From assembly GCA_023267275.1 (NCBI GenBank), contig JAHFNO010000006.1, positions 9,519 through 73,518 of the forward strand: 64,000 bases of DNA, written 5' to 3'. The notes below the pieces were generated by a model. The model was given only the letters and a program-made list of their open reading frames with translations. It had not been told where the DNA came from and did not search any database. Made by a program: the position numbers and the translations under genes. Source of the stretch: Candidatus Nomurabacteria bacterium (lineage in GTDB: Bacteria; Patescibacteriota; Minisyncoccia; Phycocordibacterales; UBA9973). Every line of letters begins with the position of its first letter. The first letter of the stretch is position 1. Positions 4,106 to 29,093 of this stretch are shown here, piece by piece.

Positions 4106-4933
4106 ATGGCTGACGAAGTAAAAAAAGTACCTGTTGTCTCTAGTACAACAAACACTCCATCGGTAAACGATCCTCAGTTTGACGAAATAAAAAGTGAGCT
4201 TTTTACTCGTTTCGAACTTCTTCCTGATGATATCAAAAAGGCAATTACTGATGACGGATACCAAACAAAACTCCTCACTATTGCAAAAGAACAAAAAATG
4301 ACCTATGAAGAACTTGGTATACTGGAGACAGAAACAACGATGGTACTTCTTGGAATGACAAAACCTGAAGATTATCGCGATGAACTGCAATTGCAATTGA
4401 AAAAGAACGATGCAGATATCGATACCTTGGTAAAAAAAGTAAATGAACAGGTATTCCTTCCTATCCGCGCATCACTTGAACGAGTATACGCAGCAAAAAA
4501 GGAACCAGCAGATTATATTCCGGAAAGTATTGTTACTGGGGTTGTAGAAAAAACACCTCCCACCACCCCGCCTGGAGTACCAGTCACCCCTCCTCAGGCA
4601 GGAAGGGAAATAATGAGCACACTGTCCACACAAGACAAATCAATTCTTGAAAAAACTGGTGTGGTGATCAATGAAACAAAACCTACTCCCAACCCTGTGC
4701 AAACTGCAGGAGTTGCAAATCGTAATGATTTGCTGAAGGGAATAGAAAACCCTCCAAAAGCACCGGTCATTGGAATGATGGCAAGCAAACTCAACACTAC
4801 CGGGCCAGCCATGCCAACAAAATCGACCGATTACTCAATATTGAAAAATGCGAGTACTCCACCTCCCACAAATATTCCTGTCGCACCAAAAACACAAGGA
4901 TCTGATCCGTATCGGGAACCAATCGGACACTAG
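4106..4933 (+). CDS. hypothetical protein, Pro-rich C-terminus
   Basis: Clean ORF following the terminator hairpin at 4040-4062; no recognisable motif. Confidence 0.5.
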   Translation: MADEVKKVPVVSSTTNTPSVNDPQFDEIKSELFTRFELLPDDIKKAITDDGYQTKLLTIAKEQKMTYEELGILETETTMVLLGMTKPEDYRDELQLQLKKNDADIDTLVKKVNEQVFLPIRASLERVYAAKKEPADYIPESIVTGVVEKTPPTTPPGVPVTPPQAGREIMSTLSTQDKSILEKTGVVINETKPTPNPVQTAGVANRNDLLKGIENPPKAPVIGMMASKLNTTGPAMPTKSTDYSILKNASTPPPTNIPVAPKTQGSDPYREPIGH

Positions 4934-5024
4934 AACAAGAAAACATAAAAACACGAGAACAAAAAATACAATTGTTCTCGTGTTTTGTTTTCATGATCTT
5001 GTGCTCTAGTGATATAATGACTCT

Positions 5025-5429
5025 ATGCGATTTTCTGTTCCACAATTTATTGATGTTGAGGACAAAATTTTTGGACCGCTCACGTTCAAACAATTCGTCT
5101 ATCTTGTAGGTGGGGGAGGAATGGTTTTTCTTTGCTATAAATTCTTGCCTTGGTATCTTTGGATCCCTCTTGGTCTTGGATTCGGCGGTCTCGGATTTGC
5201 ACTCGCCTTTGTTAAGGTAAATGAAAAACCGCTCATCAATACGATAGAGGCAATGTTCAATTACGGTATCAATGACAAGCTCTACGTTTGGAAGAAAGAA
5301 CACCCAACCAAAAAATCACAAGAACAAAAGAACAAGGAACAAGAAGTGCCCGTTCAATTACTCCCCCGAATTTCAGAATCCAAGTTGCACGATATAGCTT
5401 GGGGACTTGATGTTCTTGATAAGAGCTAA
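5025..5429 (+). CDS. PrgI-family (VirB3-like) small membrane protein of T4SS
   Basis: The N-terminus (VPQFIDVEDKIFGPLTFKQFVYL) is followed by two TM helices, and the gene lies immediately upstream of VirB4. A conserved TGnTATAAT promoter module ends 7 nt before the ATG. Confidence 0.5.
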   Translation: MRFSVPQFIDVEDKIFGPLTFKQFVYLVGGGGMVFLCYKFLPWYLWIPLGLGFGGLGFALAFVKVNEKPLINTIEAMFNYGINDKLYVWKKEHPTKKSQEQKNKEQEVPVQLLPRISESKLHDIAWGLDVLDKS

Positions 5430-5472
5430 AAATAAAATAACACAAGAACACTAAAACAAAAGAACAAGATAT

Positions 5473-5838
5473 ATGCAGGGAAATACTTACAGAGAAACAC
5501 TTAAAAATAAAATGGATCAGTATGTTCATTTTATTTATGGGATAACGAAATCATTTCCAAAAGAAGAAATATTCGGTTCAGTTTCTCAAATACGTAGGGC
5601 GGGGCTTTCTGTTGTTTTGAATTATACGGAGGGTTATGCACGAAGAAAACCCTTGGTTCTACTAAACTTTTATGAGATTGCATATGGCTCTCTTCAAGAG
5701 TCAAAATATTTACTTTTGTTTGCAAAAGACGAAAAATATATACCTGAGGATATATACAAAAAAGGAGAAATTATGGCAAACGAAATAGGTGCAATGCTTT
5801 GGAAAGAAATTCAATCAATAGAAAAATCTATTAAATAA
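5473..5838 (+). CDS. four-helix-bundle protein (TIGR02436, 23S rRNA IVS-like protein family)
   Basis: Family signature SQIRRAGLSVVLNYTEGYARRKPLVLLNFYEIAYGSLQESKYLLLFAKDEKYI. Confidence 0.75.
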   Translation: MQGNTYRETLKNKMDQYVHFIYGITKSFPKEEIFGSVSQIRRAGLSVVLNYTEGYARRKPLVLLNFYEIAYGSLQESKYLLLFAKDEKYIPEDIYKKGEIMANEIGAMLWKEIQSIEKSIK

Positions 5839-5884
5839 CAATTTTTGATTTAATGTTCTCTTGTTCTGGTGATATACTGTTCTC

Positions 5885-6541
5885 GTGGCTATCAGCGCAA
5901 CAGCAACTCAAGAATTTGTTCCAATCAAAGAAGTCCGTGAAGGAACCATCGTTCTTAAAGATGGTGGTCTCCGGGCTATTATTGCCGTCTCATCAGTAAA
6001 CCTTGCCCTCAAATCAAGCGACGAGCAAATTGCAACAATCAATCAATTTCAGTCATTTCTCAATTCGATCGATTTTCCTATTCAAATAGTTATTCAATCT
6101 CGCCGTCTTGATATTCGACCATATCTCCTTATGCTCGAAGGCAAAATGAAAGACCAGCACGAACCTCTCCTTAAACTACAGACCGCTGGATATATTAGTT
6201 TCATTCGTGAATTTACCGAACAAGTCGCCATCATGCGCAAATACTTTTACGTAGTTATTCCCTATGAAGAAGCAGCGATTTCAACAAAAAAAGGTTTTTT
6301 GGGTGGAATTTTTGGGAACAAACAATCTGGACAGACAAAACAAATGGCTGAAAATGCAAGCTTTGAAGAAAAGCGAACACAACTTGATGAGCGCGTAAGT
6401 GTGATCGCAAATGGACTTGGCAGTGTTGGTGCTCGTACTGAGCGCCTGCAAACGGAGGAGGTGATCGAGCTCTTCTACAAGACATTCAATCCTGGAGATA
6501 TTCAACCTGCAGTAAAACTCGCCGAAGTAGTAAATCAATAA
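5885..6541 (+). CDS. VirB4/TraE N-terminal domain encoded as a separate gene
   Basis: GTG start. Matches the CagE/TrbE/VirB4 N-domain pattern (EGTIVLKDGGLRAIIAVSSVNLALKSSDEQ ... FPIQIVIQSRRLDIRPYL ... MRKYFYVVIPYEE). It is in a different frame from the downstream ATPase gene and separated from it by a 103-nt intergenic region. Confidence 0.6.
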   Translation: MAISATATQEFVPIKEVREGTIVLKDGGLRAIIAVSSVNLALKSSDEQIATINQFQSFLNSIDFPIQIVIQSRRLDIRPYLLMLEGKMKDQHEPLLKLQTAGYISFIREFTEQVAIMRKYFYVVIPYEEAAISTKKGFLGGIFGNKQSGQTKQMAENASFEEKRTQLDERVSVIANGLGSVGARTERLQTEEVIELFYKTFNPGDIQPAVKLAEVVNQ

Positions 6542-6644
6542 CCAATGAAACGCAAAAACACCAGAACAACTAAACAACAAATGCAAAAACAAGAATGTCT
6601 TTCTGGTTATTATTGTTTTAATGTTTTTATGATTTACTGATTTT

Positions 6645-8495
6645 ATGTTTTCACTATTTGGAAAAAAGAAAAACCCAGCTGGGGAATCAACCCACATTCA
6701 GGCAAACGCAATGCCTATTTTTCCTGAGCAAATTTACGAAGCAGCCTCACTTGAACTCAAAGACATCATCGCTCCTTCAGCACTCAAAATCGAACCAAAA
6801 TCAATCAACCTTGGAGACAAAATTGCACGTACCTATTTTGTTATTTCCTACCCATCAACACTCACCGACAATTGGCTCTCTCCAGTCATCAACCTCGACA
6901 AGGTATTTGATATTTCAATAACAATTCATCCTGTAGAAACTGCACAAATTCTTCGTCAATTTCAAAAGAAAGTAGCCGAGGTACAAAGCCAAATCATGGA
7001 ACGTGAAGCAAAGGGAATGGTGCGCGACCCAATGCTCGATATGGCGAACAAAAATCTTGAGGATTTGCGCGACCGTCTCACTCAAGCACAAGAAAAAATG
7101 TTTGATGTTGGACTCTATCTCACGATTTACGCCGATAACGAAACTGAATTGTATAAAATTGAAAATGAAATCAAATCAATTCTTGAATCAAAACTCATTT
7201 ACTTTAAGCCTGCACTCTTTCAGCAAGATGATGGATTTAAGAGCGTGCTTCCACTTGAAGACGATCGTTTACAGATATACCAAAAGCTCAATTCGGAGCC
7301 ACTCTCGAGTTTTTTCCCATTTGTTTCGTTTGACCTTACGAGTGACAAAGGAATTCTCTACGGTGTAAACCGCCACAATTCCTCACTCATTATTTTTGAC
7401 CGTTTCAGTCTCGACAACTACAACTCAATTATTTTTGCTACATCGGGTGCTGGAAAATCATACGCCACAAAACTCGAAGTGATTCGTTGTCTCATGTTCG
7501 ATACCGAAGTGATTGTTATCGACCCAGAACGTGAATACGAACGTCTCGCCGAAGCACTCGGTGGACGCTACTTCAATATTTCGCTCAACTCTGGAAGTCA
7601 CATCAATCCGTTTGACCTTCCGCTTCCTGGAGAGGGGGAGACGGGTAATGACGTGCTTCGCGGAAATGTCATCAATCTTGTTGGACTCTTTCGTATCATG
7701 CTTGGCGGACTTACTGCCGAAGAAGACGCGCTCGTTGATCGCGCCATAATGGAAACATATGCGGTTAAAGACATCACTCCGGATTCTGATTTTTCTCAAA
7801 TCGAACCGCCGCTTCTTTCCGATTTCGAAATGGTACTCTCGGGCATGGAAGGAACTGAATCAATCGTTTCTCGTCTTTCAAAATATACCCACGGTTCGTG
7901 GGCAGGGTTTATCAACCAGCCATCAAACGTAGACATCAACAAAAAATTTGTGGTTTTCTCTGTGCGCGACATGGAAGACGACCTCAAACCTGCAGCCATG
8001 TATATCGTGACCCACTTCATTTGGAACGAAGTTCGTAAAAATATCAAAAAACGACTGCTTGTAGTGGATGAGGCATGGTGGATGATGAAATCCGACGATA
8101 CTGCCTCGTTCTTGTACTCGATTGCAAAGCGCGGCCGCAAATATTTCTTAGGACTTGCCACAATCACTCAAGACGTCGGAGATTTTATGAAGAGCCCATA
8201 CGGTATTCCAATCGTTACGAACTCATCACTGCAACTTCTCTTGAAACAATCGCCATCAACGGTAGATGTATTGCAAAAAACATTCAACCTCACTGATGAA
8301 GAGAAATATCTGTTGCTTGAATGTAACAAGGGGGAGGGAATCTTCTTTGCTGGACTCAAACATGTGGCGATTAAAGTGATTGCCTCGTACACAGAAGACC
8401 AGCTCATCACAAGCGACCCGTCACAAATCCTAGCATTACAAAAATCAAGAACAGAACTCGCAGAAGCTGTATCTGGAACACCTCCGGTTCAATAA
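6645..8495 (+). CDS. virB4: T4SS ATPase VirB4/TraC/CagE family (C-terminal ATPase half)
   Basis: Walker A ATSGAGKSYATK, Walker B LLVVDEAWWMM, and the VirB4 middle-region motif DIIAPSALKIEPKSINLGDKIARTYFVISYP. Confidence 0.85.
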   Translation: MFSLFGKKKNPAGESTHIQANAMPIFPEQIYEAASLELKDIIAPSALKIEPKSINLGDKIARTYFVISYPSTLTDNWLSPVINLDKVFDISITIHPVETAQILRQFQKKVAEVQSQIMEREAKGMVRDPMLDMANKNLEDLRDRLTQAQEKMFDVGLYLTIYADNETELYKIENEIKSILESKLIYFKPALFQQDDGFKSVLPLEDDRLQIYQKLNSEPLSSFFPFVSFDLTSDKGILYGVNRHNSSLIIFDRFSLDNYNSIIFATSGAGKSYATKLEVIRCLMFDTEVIVIDPEREYERLAEALGGRYFNISLNSGSHINPFDLPLPGEGETGNDVLRGNVINLVGLFRIMLGGLTAEEDALVDRAIMETYAVKDITPDSDFSQIEPPLLSDFEMVLSGMEGTESIVSRLSKYTHGSWAGFINQPSNVDINKKFVVFSVRDMEDDLKPAAMYIVTHFIWNEVRKNIKKRLLVVDEAWWMMKSDDTASFLYSIAKRGRKYFLGLATITQDVGDFMKSPYGIPIVTNSSLQLLLKQSPSTVDVLQKTFNLTDEEKYLLLECNKGEGIFFAGLKHVAIKVIASYTEDQLITSDPSQILALQKSRTELAEAVSGTPPVQ

Positions 8496-8600
8496 AACAA
8501 AAAATCACGAGAACACTAGAGCAAAAAGCCCCGCGCTACGCGCGGGGCTTTTTGTTACTTTTTGTTTTTATGTTCATTGTTCTAGTGATATACTGTTTCT

Positions 8601-9581
8601 ATGATACGCAAAGCGTTGTTTACTCTCACTTTTATTGCAATCGTTGTACCAGCTATTTCATTTGCTCAGGTGAACGATCAAATTTCTGTTTCTACTGATC
8701 CAATAAATCCTGGTGCAAACCAATCCGTCACCGTAACACTCCAAAGTTATTCTCTCGATCTTCAATCGTCTGAAATCGATTGGTCTCTTGATGGAAAACG
8801 AATGAAAGGAGGTATTGGAAACAATACGTTTACTTTCACCACAAAAAGTATCGGTTCACCGTCAACAGTTTCTGTAACAGTTATTCCTATTGGAGTTCCG
8901 CAAATAACCAAAACAATCACCATCAATCCAATGTCGGTGGATATTCTCTGGCAGGCAACCGATTCAATCGTACCTCCGTTGTATAAGGGCAAAGCAATGC
9001 CAACATCAGAATCTCAAATAAAATTTGTGGCTATTCCTCAAGTACAAACTGCTGGAGGATCGCTTGTAGCAAGTAGTTCACTTATCTATGACTGGAAAGA
9101 AAATTACATAAGTGATCAGAGTAATTCCGGTTATGGAAAAGATTTCTTTATCACTGCGATGGACTATCTCAATCCAACAAAAGATGTGAGTGTATCGGTA
9201 GGAACCCGCGATGGAGGAACAGCTACTGATGGCACGGTGGAAATTAAACCGATCAATCCTGAAGTTCTTTGGTATGCATCGAGCCCTCTCTACGGTCCGC
9301 TCTTTTCTGCAGCGCTGGGTGACAGTTACACTGTGGCCGGTAACGAAACTTCTCTCGTTGCAATGCCATACTTCTTTTCACCCTCAAATCCTGCATCAAA
9401 TCTTTTGAGTTACGCATGGCAAATCAATGGAACGGCGGTAGACACACCAACAATCCCAAATTCTCTCTACCTGCACCGCGATTCAAGCTCGACCGGGAGC
9501 GCAACGATCGACCTTTCTATCTCAAACACCACAAAGCTTTTTCAAGAAGCCACTACTCATCTAAATTTGTTGTTGCAATAA
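8601..9581 (+). CDS. secreted hypothetical protein (signal peptide)
   Basis: N-terminal signal peptide MIRKALFTLTFIAIVVPAISFA; the conserved promoter module lies upstream. Confidence 0.5.
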   Translation: MIRKALFTLTFIAIVVPAISFAQVNDQISVSTDPINPGANQSVTVTLQSYSLDLQSSEIDWSLDGKRMKGGIGNNTFTFTTKSIGSPSTVSVTVIPIGVPQITKTITINPMSVDILWQATDSIVPPLYKGKAMPTSESQIKFVAIPQVQTAGGSLVASSSLIYDWKENYISDQSNSGYGKDFFITAMDYLNPTKDVSVSVGTRDGGTATDGTVEIKPINPEVLWYASSPLYGPLFSAALGDSYTVAGNETSLVAMPYFFSPSNPASNLLSYAWQINGTAVDTPTIPNSLYLHRDSSSTGSATIDLSISNTTKLFQEATTHLNLLLQ

Positions 9582-9585
9582 GTAT

Positions 9586-11328
9586 ATGAATAAAAAAATA
9601 TTTATTTTTCTTTTTGTTATACTTTCTTTTTTTGTAAAAATCCCATTTACATCTGCGGGTTTGCAACCATTCCCCAGCCCAACAATAAAAATTGTCTCTC
9701 TGGGTGGAGAAAACTATTCGATCGAGTTAACTTTTACAATGGATTCAGTAACATTAGAATCCATTAAAGACAGTCCGTTCCGTGTATCCCTAGCTCATAA
9801 AAATAGCAAGAAGGGTGCTACTGTATCAGATTCAGATACAATGGAAACATGTGCAAGAGAAGGCTCAACTTCTTTATATACATGCCCAATACAAAACTTA
9901 AAAAATGGGGATACTGAGGTTTTTCAGGTTGGAATAAATAAAAATACAGCTTTGGGTGTTTCCTGGTCTCCTTTATACCAACCAGCAACAACAACAATAA
10001 ATGAACCAGTCTCAACACCTTCATTCACCCTTCAAGGAAAACCTGTGGTAAGTGGAATGACTGCAACTGCTACAGTAAACGCCTCAAACCTTCCAGCTCA
10101 AGGCGGAATATATTACCTTGAATTAGGAGATGCGATGTCAAAATCAGGTGCAAGCAACTACACATGTACAATGAATTCAGGTTTACGTTCACCAGAAATA
10201 CCTGCTGGACATGGAAATCCAAATACCATCAGTTACACATTCACATTGCCACTTCCCGGTGGGTACTGTGTTGGATTGTTACAAAAAAATCTTAATGGGA
10301 GTGTGCGAACCCCCGATGGTGTTCCTGAATATTTTCCTGACTCATTATTTTTTACAGACGGGGTCACTCCACCTCCTGGAGCAACACTTAGTGGAACAGC
10401 AAATAAACTTGGTTGTGTAGCTGGAGACGGCAATAGTGGATACTGTTTACTCGCACCGCTTCCTGGAATTGGAGACCCGAATACTGGATATATCGATGTT
10501 ACCAAAGGCATGGGTAACTATATCAACATGATTATCCGTCTTGTACTTGGTCTCATTGGTGTGCTTGCAGTATTTATGATTATTGTTGGTGGTATCGAAT
10601 ACATGTCGACGGTTTCGCTCGGAGAAAAAGAGGGTGCAAGAACCCGTATTACCAACGCACTATTTGGACTTCTCCTTGCTCTTGCTTCATATATTCTCTT
10701 AAATACAATCAATCCTAACCTTGTAAGTCTGAAAGTGGCTATTCCAAATGCAACTATTGAATATGCCTCAGATGAAGGAAATGAAACAAGCGATATAACC
10801 CCTCCAACTCCAAACATTTCTGGTATTCAAGTTTTCCCAAGCGACACAGCGCAAAATCTGGCAAAACAAATACTGAAAACGCCGGCAATTACCTACCGCA
10901 CACTTCAAGATGAAGCTACAGCAACACCAAAACAAAATATTGAAGATACTGCAGCTGGCAATTCTGCTATGACAAGTAGTAGAGGAGATGTGGGAGCTCA
11001 AAAGGTTGCGTTGGCTGCTCCAATGCTTACTGGATTACTCACAGCTGCAAAATTCTCTTCAATAGAAATTACTGAGATCACTGGGGGAAAACATAGCCCT
11101 GGATCAGCACATTATTTTGGTAGAGCGTTTGATGTTACTGCATCAAAAAATGACACTTCGAGAAATATACAAGTGATGAATGCTTGTCTTGCCGCAAAAG
11201 CAAAAATGAGTCAAATATTTGGACCCTGTTCAGGCTCTTACCGAAGCGATGGAAAATTTACAATATGTGCCGATACAGGGTATCTCACAAACAAAGACCA
11301 TCAAACACATATTCACTGTGGCTGGTAG
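9586..11328 (+). CDS. Secreted protein with pilin-like two-helix membrane hairpin and C-terminal peptidase M15-like (cell-wall hydrolase) domain
   Basis: A signal peptide, then a TM hairpin (NMIIRLVLGLIGVLAVFMIIVGGIEYM ... ITNALFGLLLALASYILLNTINPNLV) reminiscent of VirB2/TrbC pilins. The C-terminus carries an H-x6-D motif (SPGSAHYFGRAFDV) and a terminal HIHCGW, like Zn DD/LD-peptidases. Confidence 0.45.
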   Translation: MNKKIFIFLFVILSFFVKIPFTSAGLQPFPSPTIKIVSLGGENYSIELTFTMDSVTLESIKDSPFRVSLAHKNSKKGATVSDSDTMETCAREGSTSLYTCPIQNLKNGDTEVFQVGINKNTALGVSWSPLYQPATTTINEPVSTPSFTLQGKPVVSGMTATATVNASNLPAQGGIYYLELGDAMSKSGASNYTCTMNSGLRSPEIPAGHGNPNTISYTFTLPLPGGYCVGLLQKNLNGSVRTPDGVPEYFPDSLFFTDGVTPPPGATLSGTANKLGCVAGDGNSGYCLLAPLPGIGDPNTGYIDVTKGMGNYINMIIRLVLGLIGVLAVFMIIVGGIEYMSTVSLGEKEGARTRITNALFGLLLALASYILLNTINPNLVSLKVAIPNATIEYASDEGNETSDITPPTPNISGIQVFPSDTAQNLAKQILKTPAITYRTLQDEATATPKQNIEDTAAGNSAMTSSRGDVGAQKVALAAPMLTGLLTAAKFSSIEITEITGGKHSPGSAHYFGRAFDVTASKNDTSRNIQVMNACLAAKAKMSQIFGPCSGSYRSDGKFTICADTGYLTNKDHQTHIHCGW

Positions 11329-11412
11329 CTCTCGGTTGAATTGAGTCACCCTTTATACTTTATACTTGAGCTTTGCATAAGTGTCCCCTTATACTTTATA
11401 CTTGATTTACCC

Positions 11413-12687
11413 ATGTCTCGAAAAACAATTCTTATTCTCATTGCAATTCTCCTCGTCGCACTCGGTGTGTGGTTCTATTTTTCGAGCGGAACTCCTTCAG
11501 GAACAAATTCTTCTGGAACACAAAAAAGTCTTTTGAGTTCTCTTTTTCCTTTTGGCGCGGGGACCAACAATCAACAGAACATAAAAACACAAGAACAAGG
11601 AACAACAAATCCAACTGAAGAGACTCAGAGCTCGAATACTCCAGATAAACTCATTCAAATATCAAATCGATTGGTTGCTGGTTTTATTCCACTTGTCACA
11701 GACACTACACCCATCATTAAACACGACATTGGTGGCGGACCAGAGTCACAGATTACTCAAAGTATTTTCCCAACAGTTCGTTTTGCCGAAAAAGGCACGG
11801 GGTACATTTACGATATTGATGTAAAAGGACAGAACGAAAAAAAGATTTCTGAAACAGTGATCGCTCGAACAGCAGAAGCTCTTTTTGCAAACGGTGGTGT
11901 CAACGTATTGCTCCGCTATATTAAAACCGACAATACAACTATTGCCTCATTCCTCGGCACTGTTACAGCACCAGCAAATACCAATGCGGTCGGCACACTT
12001 ACTGGAAATTTCCTTGAGGAAAATATTCCGACTGTCACAACATCACCTGACAAAAAGAATTTTCTCTTTTTAATACCAACAAACACGGGTATCGCTGGTA
12101 TCAGTATGAAAGGCGATGGAAGCGGTAAGAAGCAATTGTTTACGAGTTCTTTCTCTGAATGGCTCCTCGATTGGGGAACGAGCCCAATGCTTACCAGCAA
12201 GGCTTCTAGCACTGTTCCTGGCTATGCATACACTGTACTTGCCGGTGGATCACTGCAAAAAGTACTGGGCAATATAGATGGCCTTACTACAAAGATTAGT
12301 CCGGATGGAAAGACACTACTCTATAGCGTTTCTGGTGGAGGAAGTCTCAATTTACACATCCTAACGCTAAAAACCGGAGTTGATACAAATACCGGTCTTA
12401 CAACACTTCCGGAAAAATGTACTTGGAATACAACGAGTACTGTCGTTTATTGCGGAGTAGGTACGGCAATAGTATCAGCAGAATATCCTGACTCATGGTA
12501 CAAAGGTGTCACTCATTTCACAGATTCATTTTGGAAAATAGACACAACCACAAAAACCACGACGGAAATAAATACGGGGGAGGGAAACAATCTTGATGTA
12601 ATAAATCCAAGCATCGACCCAACTAGTCAATATCTTATTTTCATAAACAAAACAAACGGTAGTCTTTGGTCTTTACAACTCAATTAA
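11413..12687 (+). CDS. membrane-anchored protein with TolB-like beta-propeller repeats
   Basis: The ORF track starts at 11341, but the Met at 11413 begins a TM anchor (MSRKTILILIAILLVALGVWFYF). PDGKTLLYS-type repeats are present. Confidence 0.45.
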   Translation: MSRKTILILIAILLVALGVWFYFSSGTPSGTNSSGTQKSLLSSLFPFGAGTNNQQNIKTQEQGTTNPTEETQSSNTPDKLIQISNRLVAGFIPLVTDTTPIIKHDIGGGPESQITQSIFPTVRFAEKGTGYIYDIDVKGQNEKKISETVIARTAEALFANGGVNVLLRYIKTDNTTIASFLGTVTAPANTNAVGTLTGNFLEENIPTVTTSPDKKNFLFLIPTNTGIAGISMKGDGSGKKQLFTSSFSEWLLDWGTSPMLTSKASSTVPGYAYTVLAGGSLQKVLGNIDGLTTKISPDGKTLLYSVSGGGSLNLHILTLKTGVDTNTGLTTLPEKCTWNTTSTVVYCGVGTAIVSAEYPDSWYKGVTHFTDSFWKIDTTTKTTTEINTGEGNNLDVINPSIDPTSQYLIFINKTNGSLWSLQLN

Positions 12688-12705
12688 TCACAAGAGCAAG
12701 AGAAC

Positions 12706-12853
12706 AATGAATTACCCCGAGCTTACGCTCGGGGTATCTTATATAGAAATACAGCAAAGCTGTATTTCCTTGTGTCCAGAGAGCCCAGGACACAAGAACT
12801 CGCTGCATCACGCGACCTTACGGTCGCGGTATTGGGTGGAAGCCCAGCGTAAT
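12706..12853 (+). repeat. 146-nt multi-hairpin repeat, copy 1 (identical copy at 28868-29015)
   Basis: Identical sequence at both loci. Hairpins CCCCGAGC-TTAC-GCTCGGGG, ATACAGC-AAA-GCTGTAT, TTGTGTCC-N10-GGACACAA and GCGACC-TTAC-GGTCGC, plus an outer CGCTG/CAGCG stem. Each copy is followed by a different intrinsic terminator. Confidence 0.7.
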
Positions 12854-12924
12854 AAAACAAAAATCAAAACCGCGCCTGGCGCGGTTTTGATTTAGTGTGT
12901 TTATGATTTCTTGTTCTGGTGTTT

Positions 12925-13431
12925 TTATGTTCTTGTGTCTCGATATCGAATAACAATGTGTCGTTTCATTCCATCACCCGCTGATTCGGTGTACACATCA
13001 GGGACTTCTCCGAGGAACTCGTGAATGATGCGGCGTTCGTGTGGAGGCATTGGGTCGAGATCAACACTTGATTTAAAATACCGTGCGCGTTCTGCCATCA
13101 TGTGTGCGATGGTTTTTAAATTGTCGATTTTCTTTTTCTCAACATTATTTGCATCAATCACCACACGTGGTCGAACTGTTTCTTCACGCATGATTTGTTC
13201 AACAACTTTTGTTGCCAAGTGATTGAGTGCAGTGAGTGCTTCACCATCACGATTTGAAAGAAGGCGAGTGTGCGGGGAAGTAATAGAAAACCAAATAGTA
13301 TTCATTTTCTCATCATACGAAACAGTAACATCAGCCTCAGTAAAACCGAGTTGAGCAAGCATGCCTTTTATATATGTATGTATTTGGTCGTGTTTCATAG
13401 CGTATATCTCAAATCCTATATTTTGTATCAA
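12925..13431 (-). CDS. jag: RNA-binding protein Jag/KhpB (KH + R3H domains)
   Basis: R3H motif ERRIIHEFL; conserved position downstream of yidC. Confidence 0.75.
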   Translation of the reverse strand: MIQNIGFEIYAMKHDQIHTYIKGMLAQLGFTEADVTVSYDEKMNTIWFSITSPHTRLLSNRDGEALTALNHLATKVVEQIMREETVRPRVVIDANNVEKKKIDNLKTIAHMMAERARYFKSSVDLDPMPPHERRIIHEFLGEVPDVYTESAGDGMKRHIVIRYRDTRT

Positions 13432-13471
13432 TTAGAGGAAAGCCCGCCGATAGGCGGGCTTTTAAGAAAGA

Positions 13472-14200
13472 TTAAGCTTGTTTCTTCGCCTTCATCTTGC
13501 TTCGTGTGTAGAGCTCCTGACCTATAGTAAAGATATTACTCGTAATCCAATAAAGCGCAACTGCTGAAGGAAAAAGGAAGTAAGAGAGTCCGGCAGTCAT
13601 AATAGGGAGTCCATAAATCATTTGTACCTGCATATTCTTGGCAAATTCGGCTTGCATACCAGTACCTGTTGGCTTTGCCTGACGACTCTGCATAAGTTTT
13701 GCTTGTACAAACTGTGTTACTCCAACCAAAACAGCAAATACAATACTGTGCTTCACCGAAAGATCGATAAATCCCAAGAAGTGGAGATTGATGAGTGCTG
13801 GCTGGTGTACAAATGAATAGAGTGTCGCTGGTTGAACAATAGTAAGGATTCCAAGAAAGGCTCGATAGAGAGCAATGAGTACCACAGCCTGGATCAAGAG
13901 TGGCATACAACTTGAAAACGGACTGATATTCTTTTCTTTATACAGTGCGAAAATTTGTTTGTTCTGTTCGGTTTTATCAGTAACTTTTTCTTTGATAGCA
14001 GCAACTTCATCTTGCACACTAGTCATTTTGATCTGGCCTTCGATTGCATGCTGGTTGAGCGGGAAGAGGGCGAGTTTGATAATAATTGTAAGAATAATAA
14101 CCGCAAGACCAAGGTCTCCGTGTGGCAAAATACCAATACCAAAGATCAGTGCATTGTAAAAAGGCTGATAAAAAACAGCGGTCCAAAAAGTGTGTAACAT
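13472..14200 (-). CDS. yidC: membrane protein insertase YidC (short form)
   Basis: Polytopic 242-aa protein in the conserved rnpA-yidD-yidC-jag order. Confidence 0.8.
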   Translation of the reverse strand: MLHTFWTAVFYQPFYNALIFGIGILPHGDLGLAVIILTIIIKLALFPLNQHAIEGQIKMTSVQDEVAAIKEKVTDKTEQNKQIFALYKEKNISPFSSCMPLLIQAVVLIALYRAFLGILTIVQPATLYSFVHQPALINLHFLGFIDLSVKHSIVFAVLVGVTQFVQAKLMQSRQAKPTGTGMQAEFAKNMQVQMIYGLPIMTAGLSYFLFPSAVALYWITSNIFTIGQELYTRSKMKAKKQA

Positions 14201-14310
14201 TGGGTCATTATATCACTAGAGCACGAGAACATGAAAACAAATAAAACCACGCCAGGCGCGGTTTTATTATATCGTGTTTTTATGATTTTTTGTTCTGGTG
14301 TTCTTGTGGT

Positions 14311-14592
14311 TCATGGAACCAGGTCTACACCTGGTGTATTGCGTGGATTACAACGAAGAAGTCGTTTTGATCCTAGATAAACACCTTTGATGGTGCCGTG
14401 TTTTTCAATAGCTTGCTTCATATATTCAGAGCATGTCGGGTAGTACATACACACCTTCCGATTAAGACCAAAAAATCGTGGAATACGTCCGGTGTCAAAA
14501 GACAAGAACTTTTGGTAAAAGATAATCAAAAATATAAAGGGTTTCTTAGAAATTGTGGTCACTGTTTTTATGATCTTTTGTTTATTGTTCAT
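14311..14592 (-). CDS. yidD: membrane protein insertion efficiency factor YidD
   Basis: CMYYPTCSEY motif. Confidence 0.8.
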   Translation of the reverse strand: MNNKQKIIKTVTTISKKPFIFLIIFYQKFLSFDTGRIPRFFGLNRKVCMYYPTCSEYMKQAIEKHGTIKGVYLGSKRLLRCNPRNTPGVDLVP

Positions 14593-14935
14593 TGACTCTA
14601 TATATTCGCGCTTGAATAAACGCTTTTTTGAGTTCTTCCCGCATTTCAGGAATGGTTGTCTTGATATCTGGGTTTGTATAAGAAACGAGGGCTACGGCAG
14701 TTGGGGAAAGAAAGGGGATAAGTGGTCGCACAGCATCATACCCTCGTCGGCGAAGCTTATTTCGAAGCACAGCTTTTGGTGCAATCTTCTTTGAGGCGCT
14801 GAAGGATACTTGGGGAGCTGTATGGGAAGGAATTTGTGTATACAAAACAAGAAAGCGCGAAGTTTTTAACCTTCGGCCCTTGAGAAGATGCTTTTCTATC
14901 GTTTGCTTCGTAATACGCGATCTCTTTGGAAGCAT
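14582..14935 (-). CDS. rnpA: ribonuclease P protein component
   Basis: Basic 117-aa protein immediately downstream of rpmH in the conserved context. Confidence 0.75.
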   Translation of the reverse strand: MLPKRSRITKQTIEKHLLKGRRLKTSRFLVLYTQIPSHTAPQVSFSASKKIAPKAVLRNKLRRRGYDAVRPLIPFLSPTAVALVSYTNPDIKTTIPEMREELKKAFIQARIYRVNEQ

Positions 14936-14994
14936 GTAATGAATTTCTAAATCCTAATGTCTAATTTCTAAAAAAGACCTAGGTATAAAGAAAA

Positions 14995-15129
14995 TTAGAG
15001 TGCGATTTTAGCGCGACCTTTCTGGCGTCTCTTTGCCAAGACTTTTCGTCCGGAAGTAGATTTTGAGCGAACGAGGAAACCGTGGGTTTTTGCTCGTTTT
15101 CTCTTTTTTGGCTGGTAGGTAAATGACAT
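14995..15129 (-). CDS. rpmH: 50S ribosomal protein L34
   Basis: [44 protein letters not shown]; the internal Met at 15129 is used rather than the longer ORF start. Confidence 0.9.
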
Positions 15130-15538
15130 AGAGCCAATATAGCACAAGAACATAAAAACACAAGAACAATAAAACAAAAAATATGAAAACCTGACTTATA
15201 GCTATAGGGTGTGTGTTGGTGGTCTAATGTTCCTTTGTTCTTGTGATTATGGTTCTTGTGATCTTGTAATTTAGTGTTCTATTGAATTTTTTGTTTTCAT
15301 GTTCATTTGTTCTTGTGTTATATTGGTTACCCACAGGTTATCAACAGAGATATGCATCGATATTTCTACTCAAAAAAACCTCGGCCTATATAATCGAACT
15401 TATGGATCCCGTAGTAGAAAATGACATTAAAGAAGCGGGACTGTAAGAGTGTGGTAAACATAAAAAGAAAACCGTTACTAGTATTAATTTAGAAAATGGG
15501 TCGCTTCTTTAAGAAGCAATGTCATTTCTCACTACGGG
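15130..15538. promoter_or_regulatory. candidate oriC part 1 / dnaA promoter region
   Basis: Strand switch between rpmH (-) and dnaA (+). DnaA-box-like 9-mers TTACCCACA, TTATCAACA and TGTGGTAAA each carry 1-2 mismatches to TTATCCACA. Multiple GTTCTTGTG repeats are present. Confidence 0.5.
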
Positions 15539-16900
15539 ATGGATACAAAAGAACTCTGGGACCACTGTTTAGTCGAGATTGAAAGTGAAGTTTCAAAGGC
15601 TAATTTCAGTACTTGGTTTAAAAACACTTCATTAGTAAAAGAAGATGCCGGAACGGTGTTTGTTGGTGTGCCAAATGAATTCGTCAAAGACTGGCTTTCA
15701 AACAAATTCCACAAACTCATCATGCGCGTACTCCGAAACGCATGGGAACACACTCGCAATGTTGAATACATGGTAGTAAAAGGCGATCCAAAGTCGCACA
15801 AAATTGAAGTTTCAAGCCAATTGAAGCCAGATTTTGCTATCAGCCAAGAACTTCCTCTCAAAGACCTCTATGTAAACAAGGATGACAACCTCAATCCTCG
15901 TTATACGTTCGATACATTCATCGTTGGACCATTCAACGAGCTCGCATATGCTGCCACACAAGCTGCAGTGGCTCGTCCAGGTAAGCAATACAACCCGCTT
16001 TTCATCTATGGATCGTCTGGTCTTGGAAAAACCCACCTCATTCAAGCAGTAGGGAATGCTATCAAGGAAAAATATCCAGAAAAAAAGGTGTACTACATCA
16101 CGCAGGAAAAATTTACGGTTGATTACATCAACTCAGTACAATCAAACCGTGGTGCTGGAAATACTTTTAAGGAAAAATATCGTAAGTATGATGCGATTAT
16201 TATTGACGACGTACAACTTGTAGGAAAAGCGGAAAAAACCCAAGAAGAATTATTCCATTTATTCAACAGCTATCACGAAGCAGGGAAGCAGATTGTCTTT
16301 TCTTCTGATAAACACCCAAACTTTATTCCGGGATTGGAAGATCGTATGCGCACTCGTTTTGCGCAGGGTATGATAGTGGATATTACCGAGCCTGAATATG
16401 AGTCTCGTCTCGCAATTTTACGTTCAAAAGTACAAGAACTTGGACTCAACCTTCCAGATGAGCTTATGGAATACATTGCAAGCGCTATTGCCGGTAATGT
16501 GCGTGAGCTCGAGGGTAGTTTGAATGCAATCGTGCTTCAATCTCAACTCAAAGGACGTTTTCCAACACTCCTTGAAACAAAAAACCTTCTAAAAAATAGT
16601 ATCAAACAAAAGAAAACCGCTTCCGTAAAAGAAGTAGTGAAGACGATTGCTGACTTTTATAATGTAGAAGAGGCTTCTATTTACGAAAAGACTCGCCGAA
16701 AGGAGATTGTGAAGGTTCGCCAAATCGTGATGTTTATTCTCCGTGAAGATTTTAGTGTGTCATATCCACTTATTGGACAAAAACTCGGGGGAAAAGATCA
16801 CACCACTGTTATCCATTCATGCTTAAAAATAAAGAACGATATGAAAAACGACATGCTTATTGCTCAAGAATTAGATCAAATACGGGCATTGTTCAAATAA
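15539..16900 (+). CDS. dnaA: chromosomal replication initiator DnaA
   Basis: AAA+ Walker A GSSGLGKTHL and a C-terminal DNA-binding domain; characteristic position next to dnaN. Confidence 0.95.
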   Translation: MDTKELWDHCLVEIESEVSKANFSTWFKNTSLVKEDAGTVFVGVPNEFVKDWLSNKFHKLIMRVLRNAWEHTRNVEYMVVKGDPKSHKIEVSSQLKPDFAISQELPLKDLYVNKDDNLNPRYTFDTFIVGPFNELAYAATQAAVARPGKQYNPLFIYGSSGLGKTHLIQAVGNAIKEKYPEKKVYYITQEKFTVDYINSVQSNRGAGNTFKEKYRKYDAIIIDDVQLVGKAEKTQEELFHLFNSYHEAGKQIVFSSDKHPNFIPGLEDRMRTRFAQGMIVDITEPEYESRLAILRSKVQELGLNLPDELMEYIASAIAGNVRELEGSLNAIVLQSQLKGRFPTLLETKNLLKNSIKQKKTASVKEVVKTIADFYNVEEASIYEKTRRKEIVKVRQIVMFILREDFSVSYPLIGQKLGGKDHTTVIHSCLKIKNDMKNDMLIAQELDQIRALFK

Positions 16901-17124
16901 TTGAAGGTTTTGGGTAAAGGTCTGTGGAAAAAGGGTGTGAATATGTGGAATGAATGTGAATAAAAAGAGTGATTTAAAACAAGAAAAAATAGGTGTGTGT
17001 ATAAGATTCTCATTATCAACAGTTGTATAAAAGAAAAAATACAGATTATAGGTTTACAATATAAAGGTATTTCAATCTTATACACATTTCCACAGGGTTA
17101 ATAGTAATAGTAATTTATATATAT
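16901..17124. promoter_or_regulatory. candidate oriC part 2 (dnaA-dnaN intergenic): DnaA-box cluster + AT-rich unwinding element
   Basis: Box-like sites TGTGGAAAA, TGTGGAATG, TGTGAATAA, TTATCAACA and TTTCCACAG, followed by taatagtaatagtaatttatatatat immediately before the dnaN ATG. Confidence 0.5.
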
Positions 17125-18222
17125 ATGATATTCGAAACTACTGTTGAAAAACTCATAACTATAATTGAAAATGCAGATCGTGTGACAGCACGAAATGCAT
17201 CACTCCCAGCACTAAGTACAATTCTTATGATTGTTTCCGGGAGTTCTCTAAAAGTACGAGCAACAAATCTTTCTCTTGGAGTTGAATTTGAAATACCAGT
17301 AAAAAAAGAAAAGGATGGTGTGATTGCACTCGACGGAAAAACACTCTATTCATTTTTAAGTACTCTTCCAAAAAACGAGAAAATAAAAATAGCACACAAT
17401 GAATCAACCCTCACTCTCACCACAGATCACAATCGCACTACAATCAAAACTCACCCATACGAAGATTTTCCTACACTCCCTTCTGTTTCAGGTACTCAAA
17501 TTCAAATACCACAGAAAGAATTTATTCGCGGTATAAAAAACACTTACTTTGCATCCGCTGTTTCTGATATCAAACCCGAGATTGCAAGTGTATTTATGTG
17601 TGCTGAAAAAAACACACTATTTTTTGTGGCTACAGACTCATTCCGTCTTGCTGAAAAGAAAGAAACAATCAAAAAAGCCGTAGAATTTTCTCCGATTCTC
17701 ATTCCATATAAAAACATTATTGAAATTGCTCGTATTCTTGAAAATAAAACAGAAGAAATAACACTTTCTATTAATGAAAATCAAATCGCAATAACGATTC
17801 CAGGAATATATATCACCTCACGACTTACTTCTGGAAGTTTTCCAGATTATAAGCAGATTATCCCCAAGGAATTTCTTACTGAAGTCGTAGTGTTGAAACA
17901 AGATTTACTTACTACACTCAAAACCGCAAACATTTTCTCAGATAAATTTAATCAAATTACGTTTTCTATTACGCCTTCCAAGAAAAAGTTTGAATGTGTA
18001 TCAAAAAATTCTGATGTTGGTGAATATTCTGGAGTAATCGACGCAACCCTCTCCGGAGATGATGTCTCAATCGCTCTCAATCAACGCTATTTGATTGAAT
18101 GTCTCTCATTCATCCCTCAAGACAGTATTACAATTGGACTCAATGGTGGCAGCAAGGCGGTCGTTATACGCGGTGTAGGAGATTCTTCATTCACATACCT
18201 CCTTATGCCGATGAATAGGTAA
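17125..18222 (+). CDS. dnaN: DNA polymerase III beta sliding clamp
   Basis: 365-aa protein directly after dnaA; three-domain clamp-like sequence. Confidence 0.85.
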   Translation: MIFETTVEKLITIIENADRVTARNASLPALSTILMIVSGSSLKVRATNLSLGVEFEIPVKKEKDGVIALDGKTLYSFLSTLPKNEKIKIAHNESTLTLTTDHNRTTIKTHPYEDFPTLPSVSGTQIQIPQKEFIRGIKNTYFASAVSDIKPEIASVFMCAEKNTLFFVATDSFRLAEKKETIKKAVEFSPILIPYKNIIEIARILENKTEEITLSINENQIAITIPGIYITSRLTSGSFPDYKQIIPKEFLTEVVVLKQDLLTTLKTANIFSDKFNQITFSITPSKKKFECVSKNSDVGEYSGVIDATLSGDDVSIALNQRYLIECLSFIPQDSITIGLNGGSKAVVIRGVGDSSFTYLLMPMNR

Positions 18223-18319
18223 ACCCAGGTGTTGGGTGTTTGGTTTTAGGTGTTAGAAAAATACAAATCAATTTTAAGATGATTTACTATTCCCTTAATC
18301 CTAATCCCTTTTCCCTACA

Positions 18320-18580
18320 ATGAAACAACTTAGCGAATTTTTAGAGCGATTTATAAAACTCGCACAATCAAGCGATGATGCAAAACAAGCAATCATTGAT
18401 GCCTTACAACAATCAGGTGTTCGGGTAAATGGGGGATTAGAAAGTGTTGTGATTCGCGGGACGATAGCCACACTTAAACTAAGTCCAATTCAAAAAAGCG
18501 AAGTGTCACTCCGACAAGCAAAAATTATTGCGCTCCTAAAAGAAAATCCCTTAACCAAACACCTCACAGTAGTGAGGTGA
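18320..18580 (+). CDS. small hypothetical protein downstream of dnaN
   Basis: ORF followed by the bidirectional terminator at 18598-18632. Confidence 0.4.
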   Translation: MKQLSEFLERFIKLAQSSDDAKQAIIDALQQSGVRVNGGLESVVIRGTIATLKLSPIQKSEVSLRQAKIIALLKENPLTKHLTVVR

Positions 18581-18678
18581 ACAAAAGAACAATAATTAAA
18601 AAAGCACCGCGGGCGAAGCCCGCGGTGCTTTTGTTCTTGTGTTCATTGTTTTTATGTTCTTCTGAAGATATAAATATT

Positions 18679-21195: not shown

Positions 21196-21252
21196 TCCAG
21201 TATCATATCACGACCCAAGGACAAAAAAGGGCATTTATGGTACAGTGCTTTT

Positions 21253-22623: not shown

Positions 22624-22759
22624 AGTCACAAGAACAAAAGATCATCAGAGTATAAAAACACGAGAGCAGATAATATAAAAACAAAAAATACAAACCCCGC
22701 GCCTGGCGCGGGGTTTGTATTAATGTTCTAGTGATTATTGTTCTCGTGTTCTAGTGATT

Positions 22760-22939
22760 TTACAAGTCTGCTGTAGGCAAATCACTCTCGTCATCGTCTT
22801 CTGTGTCGACATCATCATCGGTGAGGGGAATATCATCTGCTAAAAATTCATCATCGATGTCCGTATCATCTGTCAAAGCAGTTCCGGTAAATTCTGGATC
22901 TTCATCGGATGGGCGAATTGTATCTTCTTCAAATTGCAT
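22760..22939 (-). CDS. small (59 aa) highly acidic hypothetical protein
   Basis: Manual translation gives MQFEEDTIRPSDEDPEFTGTALTDDTDIDDEFLADDIPLTDDDVDTEDDDESDLPTADL. It falls below the 60-aa ORF-track cutoff and sits between two terminator/repeat regions. Confidence 0.35.
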   Translation of the reverse strand: MQFEEDTIRPSDEDPEFTGTALTDDTDIDDEFLADDIPLTDDDVDTEDDDESDLPTADL

Positions 22940-23101
22940 ACTAAGAAAAAATTATAAGTAAGTAAAATAGTTTTCGAGCGACCTAATAACGACCTAATAA
23001 TGTACAGTTGTAACAGATGCAGTTTTTATTAGCAACACCTGTTTTACAAAAAAGTGTGGATATCTAAAAGAGTATGCGTACACAAAATGAATTGGCTCTT
23101 T

Positions 23102-23578: not shown

Positions 23579-23590
23579 AATGTCTAATAA

Positions 23591-23971: not shown

Positions 23972-23996
23972 TAGAAATTAGAAGTTAGATATTGGG

Positions 23997-28872: not shown

Positions 28873-29015
28873 ATTACCCCGAGCTTACGCTCGGGGTATC
28901 TTATATAGAAATACAGCAAAGCTGTATTTCCTTGTGTCCAGAGAGCCCAGGACACAAGAACTCGCTGCATCACGCGACCTTACGGTCGCGGTATTGGGTG
29001 GAAGCCCAGCGTAAT
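28868..29015 (+). repeat. 146-nt multi-hairpin repeat, copy 2
   Basis: Identical to 12706-12853; followed by the terminator AAAAAACGGTTTGCGCTAAGCGCAAACCGTTTTTC. Confidence 0.7.
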
Positions 29016-29093
29016 AAAAAACGGTTTGCGCTAAGCGCAAACCGTTTTTCTTTTTGTATTTTTCTAGAAACTAGACCCTAGAACCTGCCATCA

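Follow-up and report, generated by a model that had tools for sequence, protein, structure and literature searches.

We have analyzed a stretch of 64,000 nt (the window from here on) from a Candidatus Nomurabacteria bacterium (GCA_023267275.1, contig JAHFNO010000006.1, positions 9,519-73,518 of the forward strand), in which four genes close to the replication origin are preceded by nearly the same putative promoter. The origin region carries rpmH-rnpA-yidD-yidC-jag on the minus strand and dnaA-dnaN on the plus strand. Beside it lies a cluster resembling a type IV secretion system (T4SS), with genes for PrgI-family, TraC-like, VirB4 and pilin-like proteins (4106-12687, adjoining 12925-22623). 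With the VirB4-like protein of the window (6645-8495) as query we retrieved a comparison set of 80 loci (1.45 Mb), all of them metagenome-assembled genomes of Patescibacteria or candidate phyla radiation (CPR) bacteria, labelled Paceibacterota, Nomurabacteria and similar, with VirB4 identities of 73-89%. The T4SS-like cluster and the gene order at the origin are syntenic in most of these 80 Paceibacteria species (loci L002-L079), and because this synteny is kept we consider the locus as core chromosome next to oriC. The putative secretion or uptake apparatus is thus a core, origin-proximal locus in the Paceibacteria family studied. A mobile T4SS island or conjugative element, marked by the zone of short repeats described below, was considered and rejected, since the T4SS-like cluster, jag-yidC-yidD-rnpA, dnaA-dnaN and a penicillin-binding protein (PBP) gene are all syntenic in most relatives. 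An independent ENA assembly from the same population matches the window over 12717-24200 at 99.95% identity (L081) and reproduces the yidC promoter and the repeat arrays of that interval; a second ENA contig (L082) is 100% identical over 12979-14256, and contigs from the ENA samples carry an identical PrgI protein. No Rfam family matched at threshold across the window, and at E<=5 only terminator-like noise was found in 12.6-15.6 kb.

A first-pass annotation of this DNA had pointed out near-identical blocks in front of four start codons, each with an extended -10 element ending about 7 nt before the start, and had advised a motif search relative to start codons. The blocks are indeed as it quoted them. 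GTGATATAMTG occurs exactly at 5009(+), 5869(+), 8585(+) and 14206(-), before the genes of the PrgI-family protein, the TraC-like protein (g5885), a secreted protein (g8601) and YidC (Table 1), and TCTNGTGATATAMTG has 4 exact matches in the window against 0.00 in 100 dinucleotide shuffles. In all four modules a TG stands one base 5' of the hexamer (TGnTATAAT or TGnTATACT; TGATATAAT twice and TGATATACT twice) and the spacer from hexamer to start codon is exactly 6 nt. The block of PrgI and that of yidC share 91% identity over 44 nt (inverted repeat pair I2). Since tblastn alignments with the orthologs of PrgI (72 loci), g5885 (72), YidC (34) and g8601 (14) begin at residue 1, the start codons of the four genes are correctly placed, and the four matches to the motif all lie at the same spacing before these validated starts.

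In the canonical sigma-70 geometry the hexamer lies at -12 to -7 and the start point 7 nt past it, and the module hexamers occupy -12 to -7 when the A or G of the start codon is taken as +1, so that the predicted start point coincides with the start codon. Extended -10 promoters (TGnTATAAT) have their TG at -15/-14 beside a consensus hexamer and need no -35; the core is the same here and only its placement flush with the open reading frame (ORF) differs. The best -35 candidate at the modules was TTCATG (3/6), and a two-hexamer promoter scan called none of the four sites. With the start codon 6 nt past a strong promoter box, a leaderless mRNA is probable for the four genes. In the mechanism that we propose, each block would be an extended -10 without a usable -35, its hexamer ending 6 nt before the start; a sigma-70-type RNA polymerase would begin its transcript with the first base (A or G) of the start codon, giving a leaderless mRNA, and ribosomes would engage the 5'-terminal AUG or GUG directly. 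The first-pass figure of at least four genes was an undercount: the four stand, and there is also a module before rpmH, another copy facing dnaA, a related sequence before the class A PBP gene and a degenerate copy before VirB4.

Table 1. Features of the repeat elements, promoters and associated genes. Positions are those of the window unless a related locus (L) is named; spans are given for features that belong to an octad element.
Feature	Position	Strand	Element span	Description
Left arm of e4916	4927-4983	+	4916-5024	CACTAGAACA, CACGAGAACA (reverse-complement octads); hairpin ACACGAGAACA...TGTTCTCGTGT, then TTTTG; predicted terminator of gene 4106-4933; fold -33.5 kcal/mol, z -6.0
Module 1	4984-5027	+	4916-5024	Right arm of e4916, TGTTTTCA / TGATCTTG / TGCTCTAG; TG 5010-5011, TATAAT 5013-5018, 6 nt, ATG 5025 of PrgI-family gene (5025-5429)
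Reverse octad array	5436-5466	-	5436-5887	Immediately upstream of the S23p/IVP gene
IVP1	5473-5838	+	5436-5887	S23p 23S-rRNA-intervening-sequence protein, PF05635, E 4.9e-25, matches PDB 2gsc; between PrgI and g5885
Module 2	5854-5887	+	5436-5887	Octads TGTTCTCT / TGTTCTGG; TG 5870-5871, TATACT 5873-5878, 6 nt, GTG 5885 of g5885, TraC-like, 218 aa (5885-6541)
Degenerate copy, g5885/VirB4	6545-6647	+	6545-6647	Left octads 6551-6568; right arm TGTTTTAATGTTTTTATGATTTACT, hexamer without A2; degenerate module 6603-6647; spacer 103 nt against a family median of 16 nt
VirB4 3' part	8506-8556	+	8490-8600	Left octads CACGAGAACACTAGAGCA; predicted 17-bp GC-rich intrinsic terminator 8520-8556 after VirB4
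Module 3	8557-8603	+	8490-8600	Right arm TGTTTTTA / TGTTCAT / TGTTCTAG; TG 8586-8587, TATACT 8589-8594, 6 nt, ATG 8601 of g8601, secreted protein of 326 aa (8601-9581)
Convergent junction, g11341/jag	12689-12937	+	12689-12937	Left arm 12689-12706; predicted bidirectional terminator 12861-12893; right arm 12912-12937, dead -10 TGTTTTTAT; 154-nt insertion 12704-12857
Module 4	14198-14241	-	14198-14312	Octads TGTTCTCG / TGCTCTAG; TG 14214-14215, TATAAT 14207-14212, 6 nt, yidC ATG 14200-14198
yidD-yidC part	14240-14312	-	14198-14312	Predicted terminator hairpin 14240-14268; reverse octads 14291-14308 (plus strand)
e15134, left end	15127-15180	-	15134-15324	Octads, TGCTATATT (hexamer 15136-15141), 6 nt, rpmH ATG 15129
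e15134, right end	15225-15324	+	15134-15324	rpmH-dnaA (oriC) spacer; several octads, then TGTTATATT (15316-15324) toward DnaA boxes and dnaA
Convergent junction, small ORF/PBP	18582-18680	+	18582-18680	Left octad; predicted terminator 18600-18632; right arm with degraded -10 GATATAAAT; no gene downstream
PBP promoter	21196-21210	-		TGATATGAT, hexamer 21202-21207, 6 nt, ATG (21195) of class A PBP gene (18679-21195); related putative leaderless promoter
tyrS promoter	start 21253	divergent from PBP gene		TGGTACAGT-6-ATG
Convergent junction after tyrS	22627-22756	+	22627-22756	Left octads; predicted terminator 22687-22721; three right octads ending GTGATTTTAC (dead -10); fold -54.9 kcal/mol, z -10.3; no gene downstream
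IVP2	23591-23971			Divergent PF05635 gene between yebC and ruvC
Start-codon hairpins in relatives	L005 1285-1408, 4815-4931(-); L009 9865-9985, 5361-5477(-); L033 17647-17717; L038 9213-9334; L049 7322-7440; L079 12877-12958			Copies of the hairpin element found in dnaA of the window

The absence of a Shine-Dalgarno (SD) sequence from the leaders, also claimed at first pass, was borne out. Six nucleotides leave no room for one, and the SD words GGAGG, AGGAG, GGAG and GAGG showed codon periodicity only and peaked at no spacing, neither in the window nor across the 80 loci. A subgroup of Parcubacteria is reported to lack the anti-SD motif (PMC9297842). As there is no 16S rRNA gene in the window or the 80 loci (and no rRNA of any kind in the window), we argue for anti-SD loss from this literature and from the missing SD peak.

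The annotation had further proposed leaderless translation of the T4SS genes and yidC. Geometry, statistics and orthologs favour the leaderless part of this proposal; what does not stand is that it would be something special to these genes, the pattern being found across the lineage. In the 80 loci, TA[TC]A[AC]T was found ahead of an ATG or GTG that begins an ORF of at least 80 codons 140, 83 and 44 times at spacings of 6, 7 and 8 nt over a background of about 17, and the window has 9 such occurrences at spacing 6. A -10 with at least 5/6 matches at 4-9 nt precedes 12 of the 58 annotated starts of the window and only 7 of 502 internal ATG/GTG codons, with no re-assignment of starts, and half of these 12 genes (e.g., those at 37632, 40106 and 52506) lack the shared block. 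Among orthologs, a -10 with at least 4/6 matches at the same distance was found for YidC in 33/34, DnaA in 35/40, g8601 in 13/14, PrgI in 39/71 and g5885 in 46/72, the consensus being TATAGAAT-6-ATG for yidC and TAGTATAAT-7/8-ATG for dnaA, while none of 40 orthologs of the operon-internal control RnpA had one with at least 5/6.

It might be argued that this likeness to promoters is incidental in AT-rich sequence, the true promoters being distant and the leaders ordinary, with a translation that is SD-independent and leader-dependent. Actually, operon-internal genes such as rnpA and g9586 are evidently translated with neither SD nor -10. However, the positional peak is sharp, 140 at spacing 6 against 9 at spacing 5 and 29 at spacing 9, the conserved positions are precisely those of a -10 (T1, A2, T6) together with the TG at -15/-14, and predicted terminators lie immediately upstream of the modules, all of which makes such an explanation very unlikely. 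That leaderless promoters are the ordinary way of expression of genes that are first in their unit in this SD-less Paceibacteria lineage, with no speciality of T4SS or yidC, is well supported in silico. In the library searched, no paper was found tying leaderless genes to Parcubacteria or Patescibacteria. The signature known for leaderless genes is a TANNNT about 12 nt before the start, and the TA-led leaderless genes of Actinobacteria and Deinococcus-Thermus (Zheng 2011, PMC3160421; Cortes 2013, PMC3898074; de Groot 2014, PMC4007540; PMC12340547) have in common with those described here the TANNNT flush with the ORF, the lack of SD, the start point at the start codon (here predicted) and the use by many first-in-unit genes. 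They differ in the lineage, here Patescibacteria/Paceibacteria, in that SD use is apparently wholly absent here rather than mixed, and in that a full TATAAT with its TG replaces the loose TANNNT.

What is peculiar to the window is the sequence 5' of the -10, which resolves into 8-bp units (octads) that all begin with TG, e.g., TGTTTTCA / TGTTCTCG / TGCTCTAG / TGATATAA / TGACCCAA / TG. The extended -10 is itself one of these units and the start codon is in phase with them. With up to one mismatch, TGTTCTNGTG occurs 71 times in the window against 16.5 expected. The 25 exact copies are all within 4.0-23.6 kb, 21 of them in the 11% of this interval that is intergenic and 4 in coding sequence, and none was found in 24-64 kb; neighbours on the same strand are 8 nt apart in 13 cases and 16 nt apart in five. 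The octads occur in both orientations and in a fixed order: reverse units (CNAGAACA), an A-rich run, a GC hairpin with its T-run, a T-rich run, forward units (TGTTTTYA, TGTTCTNG) and, as the last unit, TGATATAA, which is the extended -10. Repeat families D1 and D2, with 8-nt register shifts, and inverted pairs I1-I17 were found. There are about nine such elements within 4.9-22.8 kb around oriC, one of which encloses a gene and three of which lie between convergent genes with nothing downstream to transcribe. Six copies could be aligned to a common consensus, and three copies have the identical hairpin core CCGCGCCTGGCGCGG. Intrinsic terminators were predicted 35 times against 15.2 expected, strong ones lie directly upstream of the modules, and the folds of whole elements have z-scores of -6 to -10. 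The element e15134 is palindromic and, as read from its sequence, has an outward promoter box at both ends, one on the rpmH side and the other on the dnaA side (pair I16).

These arrays were absent from all 80 related species, tandem octads TGTTCTNG forming 10 pairs in the window and 2 in the 1.45 Mb of the comparison set. A metagenome scan with the 19-mer TGCTCTAGTGATATAATGA returned four unrelated contigs, none with octads, the species being absent from the collection scanned. The conserved promoter cassette that the first-pass annotation had seen in the four blocks is therefore not what they are, the tandem octads being missing in relatives and occurring also in inverted form beyond terminators and at convergent ends without genes. 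Two other roles for the octads were considered and rejected. They are not the -35 or UP element of a housekeeping promoter, since other leaderless promoters have no octads (one, at 40106, has a canonical TTGACA) and octads also occur inverted or without a promoter. Nor are they arrays of stops in all frames: the 7-/8-nt repeats of relatives and the TTAGAAA heptads mentioned below hold TAG or TAA in every unit, TGTTCTNG mostly does not.

Several lines of evidence suggest that the octad elements were copied as blocks. The five octad junctions that we measured span 91-455 nt in the window; the medians of their families are 16-45 nt, and junctions with octads exceed these medians by 60-425 nt. The yidC promoter of relatives is TATAGAAT, and in its place the window has a promoter 91% identical over 44 nt to the PrgI copy. 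Besides, the hairpin core CCGCGCCTGGCGCGG shared by three elements indicates copying rather than independent origin. Where a right end faces a gene, the hexamer has kept its A2 and T6 in 6/6 cases (TATAAT, TATACT and TATATT, twice each), and where no gene follows in 0/3 (TTTTAC, TATAAA, TTTTAT). As an intact -10 goes with a downstream gene, promoter function appears to be selected only where it is used. We consider it likely that the whole pattern reflects extended -10 leaderless promoters sitting at the right ends of copied, genome-specific palindromic octad elements, the four sites being near-identical because each is the right end of one copy. The element would have been inserted or copied into about nine junctions around oriC, where it would end the upstream transcript and supply, or overwrite, an outward leaderless promoter for the next gene.

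Some observations weigh against this explanation. Neither a target-site duplication nor a transposase nor a clear boundary of the element could be found, and for this reason "inserted or copied" could equally well mean gene conversion or local expansion. For a presence/absence comparison the sole other assembly of the species is 99.95% identical. The closest relative (L001, VirB4 89% identical) has GTGCTCCAGTGATATAAT-6-GTG at the ortholog of g5885, so that one junction may hold the ancestral promoter core, of which the others would be copies, with no mobile element as its carrier. The octads were seen in some 18 kb of one genome and the other 40 kb of the window have none. Cognate left and right arms pair no better than non-cognate ones (-23.8 against -25.0 kcal/mol) and the N position has no co-variation, so that pairing in cis is not specifically maintained and a role in extending the hairpin has no independent support. 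Leaderless expression itself is argued from geometry and comparative statistics. Shown directly are the anatomy of the sequences, their geometry and statistics, the conservation in orthologs, the expanded junctions and the association of an intact -10 with a gene downstream; where transcription starts, that translation is leaderless, that the terminators are active and how the elements move or are copied we infer.

Two side observations concern these points. In L001 the sequence at 9286-9319 is CGTGCTCCAGTGATATAAT-6-GTG before the g5885 ortholog, almost the A-type module GTGCTCTAGTGATATAAT, which in the window stands before PrgI and yidC instead. Compensatory pairing between cognate arms was looked for and none was found.

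Three readings of the octad role remain: a terminator-promoter block may be copied selfishly or neutrally, the octads may form an array that serves as operator or centromere, or they may give an RNA stem for RNase III. In the second, the octads would be operators or centromere-like sites of a sequence-specific DNA-binding protein that co-regulates the promoters near oriC (T4SS-like genes, yidC, rpmH, dnaA); the block would be the signature of a regulon and the promoters would still be leaderless. The strict 8-nt tandem register, the overlap with promoter positions -16 to -48 and the presence of both orientations fit such sites, and an N position without co-variation in arms that pair no better when cognate is what would be expected of a motif read on DNA. 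The arrays are also confined to about 18 kb around oriC, including the rpmH-dnaA spacer, and relatives have their own unrelated 7-8-bp units at the same junctions (e.g., TTCGTAA in L065 and L049), as a co-evolving pair of protein and site would yield. Omega repressor heptads of inc18 plasmids and ParG tetramer boxes of TP228 are 7-8-bp-spaced arrays, direct and inverted, that lie over promoters and serve as operator and centromere. Unlike them, the arrays of the window are chromosomal, flank terminators and occur at promoter-less junctions, and a Pfam scan detected no cognate small DNA-binding protein nearby. Specifically, among 40 proteins across 72-45885 no ribbon-helix-helix, helix-turn-helix or other regulator was found near the arrays, proteins without a Pfam match remaining as candidates. 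Arrays at convergent gene ends have nothing to regulate, and the expansion of the junctions and the common hairpin cores point to the copying of whole elements. On balance we regard a regulon of this kind as possible, if unlikely.

Octads might also be DNA uptake sequences, i.e., short species-specific words that in Neisseria and Pasteurellaceae accumulate as inverted terminator pairs. In favour of this, the word is peculiar to this species, strongly enriched and present as inverted pairs around terminators, and CPR bacteria are thought to depend on DNA uptake. But uptake sequences have a high and roughly even density over the genome, coding sequence included, and here 40 kb of the window hold zero copies and coding sequence hardly any. 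For the genome as a whole the window already suggests a density far below about 1 per kb and a restriction to a few loci, and tandem 8-nt arrays in phase with a -10 are not features of uptake sequences. We think this extremely unlikely.

One octad element has a gene in place of the hairpin. The gene, IVP1, codes for an S23p protein of the type found in 23S rRNA intervening sequences (IVS) and is enclosed by inverted octad arrays at a junction, PrgI-g5885, where the median spacer in relatives is 30 nt. A second, divergent PF05635 gene, IVP2 (27% identity to IVP1 over 64 aligned residues), is enclosed by inverted arrays of the heptad TTAGAAA (pair I23), of which the right arm abuts the ruvC ATG. 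For duplexes between the arms around the two genes the predicted energies are -23.3 kcal/mol and -21.6 kcal/mol, shuffled arms giving -12.0 and -7.7. Both genes are located between protein genes (PrgI/g5885 and yebC/ruvC) and not in 23S rRNA. In relatives a PF05635 gene upstream of PrgI is bracketed by genome-specific 7-8-bp arrays, CTTTATAA in L022 and L075, GCCTAGAG in L026, L030 and L056 and TTCGTAA in L065. In the latter genome TTCGTAA arrays are found at the four junctions that carry octads in the window, and L049 has TTCGTAA as well.

Other repeat arrays accompany these genes. The heptad family TTAGNNA (14942-14975, 23579-23608, 23964-23993 and 26869-26900) has 13 three-unit matches against 0.3 expected, with solo arrays in the rpmH-rnpA spacer and upstream of ruvB; it places a TAG every 7 nt, so that three units give a stop codon in all three frames. 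The tandem repeats of relatives (TTCGTAA, CTTTATAA, GCCTAGAG and AAGCTAA; L065 3212-11431, L049 8262-15715, L022 6452-6907, and upstream of PrgI in L026, L030 and L056) form inverted arrays at junctions of the T4SS-like cluster and at S23p/IVP genes, the position being conserved and the sequence not.

The inverted arms may act in RNA: in read-through or polycistronic transcripts they would form long stems around the terminator or the S23p ORF, to be cut by RNase III in the manner of the S23p-type IVS of 23S rRNA, and the 5' ends at or beside the starts would come partly or wholly from processing instead of initiation at the TGnTATAAT box. One octad and one heptad copy each enclose a PF05635 gene with duplex energies beyond those of shuffled arms, the fold z-scores of whole elements are in line with it, and in L026, L030 and L056 the arm beside the IVP gene abuts the PrgI ATG without a recognisable -10. 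RNase III excises a Coxiella IVS of the same anatomy, whose arm contains tandem heptamers (PMC4990558). Nevertheless, orthologs without any arms conserve the -10 at 6 nt and in the window it is retained only where a gene follows, which argues for a real promoter, and cognate arms show no compensatory changes. We hold processing as the source of these 5' ends to be unlikely. A broader picture, in which species-specific S23p/IVS-type palindromes with 7-8-bp tandem arms colonise gene junctions, bringing outward promoters and RNase III-cut stems, with 5' ends at start codons made by processing and initiation together, in a bacterial parallel to the punctuation behind the leaderless mRNAs of mitochondria, and the CCCGT-ended hairpins described below belonging to the same economy, seems to us quite unlikely.

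The copied octad elements that we favour are closest in kind to Correia elements and to IVS of the S23p type. The Correia elements (CREE) of Neisseria can carry promoters at their ends, terminate transcription and are substrates of RNase III (PMC2649163). Like them (Correia elements have about 100-150 nt), the octad elements are small, dispersed and palindromic, lie in gene junctions and have a putative outward promoter at one or both ends together with a likely terminator role. Unlike them, they have tandem 8-bp arms instead of a unique 26-bp inverted repeat, no sequence relation, no visible TA target duplication or integration host factor (IHF) site, copies in only some 18 kb, and a promoter positioned for leaderless mRNA. 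With the S23p-type 23S rRNA IVS of Coxiella and Leptospira (PMC4990558) they share a PF05635 ORF within stem-forming inverted repeats, tandem 7-nt repeats in the arms and short versions without ORF, and they differ in lying between protein-coding genes rather than in 23S rRNA helices 25/45 and in having arms that overlap promoters. The components are all of known kinds (leaderless genes, extended -10 promoters, promoter-bearing palindromes and IVS); the combination and the lineage are new.

Other features of the window deserve mention. At dnaA the ancestral leaderless promoter is kept (TATATAAT at 15387-15394, 7 nt, ATGGAT at 15402-15407, within 15385-15545), and after codon 2 there is a hairpin element of 131 nt (15408-15538; fold -44.9 kcal/mol, z -6), its inverted ends being CCCGTAGTAG...CTACGGG, and a second ATGGAT behind it is the real dnaA start (15539). 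Eight further copies in six species (Table 1) came from an unbiased search for perfect 10-nt inverted ends abutting the ATG of long ORFs; all begin with CCCGT and nearly all duplicate an ATGNNN (consensus ATGRRT), and the element has no Rfam match. It is likeliest a miniature inverted-repeat transposable element whose targets are ATGGAT-like sites and whose insertions persist only if the duplication restores a start codon, the alternatives being removal at the RNA level or re-initiation coupled to an upstream ORF. A perfect direct duplicate of 154 nt (12704-12857 and 28866-29019) folds into four successive hairpins (-69.6 kcal/mol), and its first copy splits the octad element between left arm and terminator; the end of the independent ENA contig, at 12717, falls within this repeat (13 nt in). 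Rfam does not match the duplicate and the 80 related loci contain no homolog. Both a small mobile element and a structured RNA are conceivable.

ARAGORN called a tRNA-Stop (tta) at 52194-52267. We rejected this suppressor tRNA, as the gene is better described as tRNA-Lys(UUU) (stem GCUCC/GGAGA, loop CUUUUAA, 5-nt variable loop) and TAA is the stop codon of 43 of the 58 genes, which argues against a UAA suppressor. Downstream of this gene and of the Arg tRNA gene at 58192-58264, past a terminator in both cases, are segments of about 150 nt that are related to each other (52416-52463 and 58377-58424 have 83% identity over 48 nt), and at the end of the Arg segment the 3' end of the tRNA occurs a second time (TTCCTGCCAGGATCAC, 58415-58435). 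The segment resembles a small element that has inserted at tRNA 3' ends, or what is left of such an element. A 37-nt inverted pair (35290-35326 and 62260-62296, 89% complementary, palindrome CCTGAACTTGATTCAGG) lies just upstream of tsaE (35302) and of the gene 61487-62239(-) and may be a shared operator. Finally, repeat runs containing GTATAC are found at 56672-56745, as tatactgtataccgtatactgaatactgtatact in the divergent spacer between 56087-56671(-) and 56745-57089(+), and at 26960-27002, as the similar GGTATACTGTGTGTATACCCTGTGTATAAAG upstream of ruvB.

Leaderless genes, extended -10 promoters and promoter-bearing palindromic repeats were already known, and the result is in this sense not revolutionary. 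Patescibacteria are however a large share of bacterial diversity, almost entirely uncultured, and what is known of their initiation of transcription and translation comes mainly from sequence. For one large family we can now draw a testable picture, in which SD sequences would not be used, -10 boxes lie flush with the ORFs that are first in their unit and the orthologous promoters appear conserved across 80 species, with consequences for the choice of start codons in CPR gene calling, for operon prediction and for heterologous expression. The octad elements tie the enigmatic S23p/IVS-protein genes to repeat-armed palindromes outside rRNA. They also suggest that in compact genomes units made of a terminator plus a promoter may be copied as blocks and rewire operons, yidC, VirB4 and g8601 each lying behind one of them.

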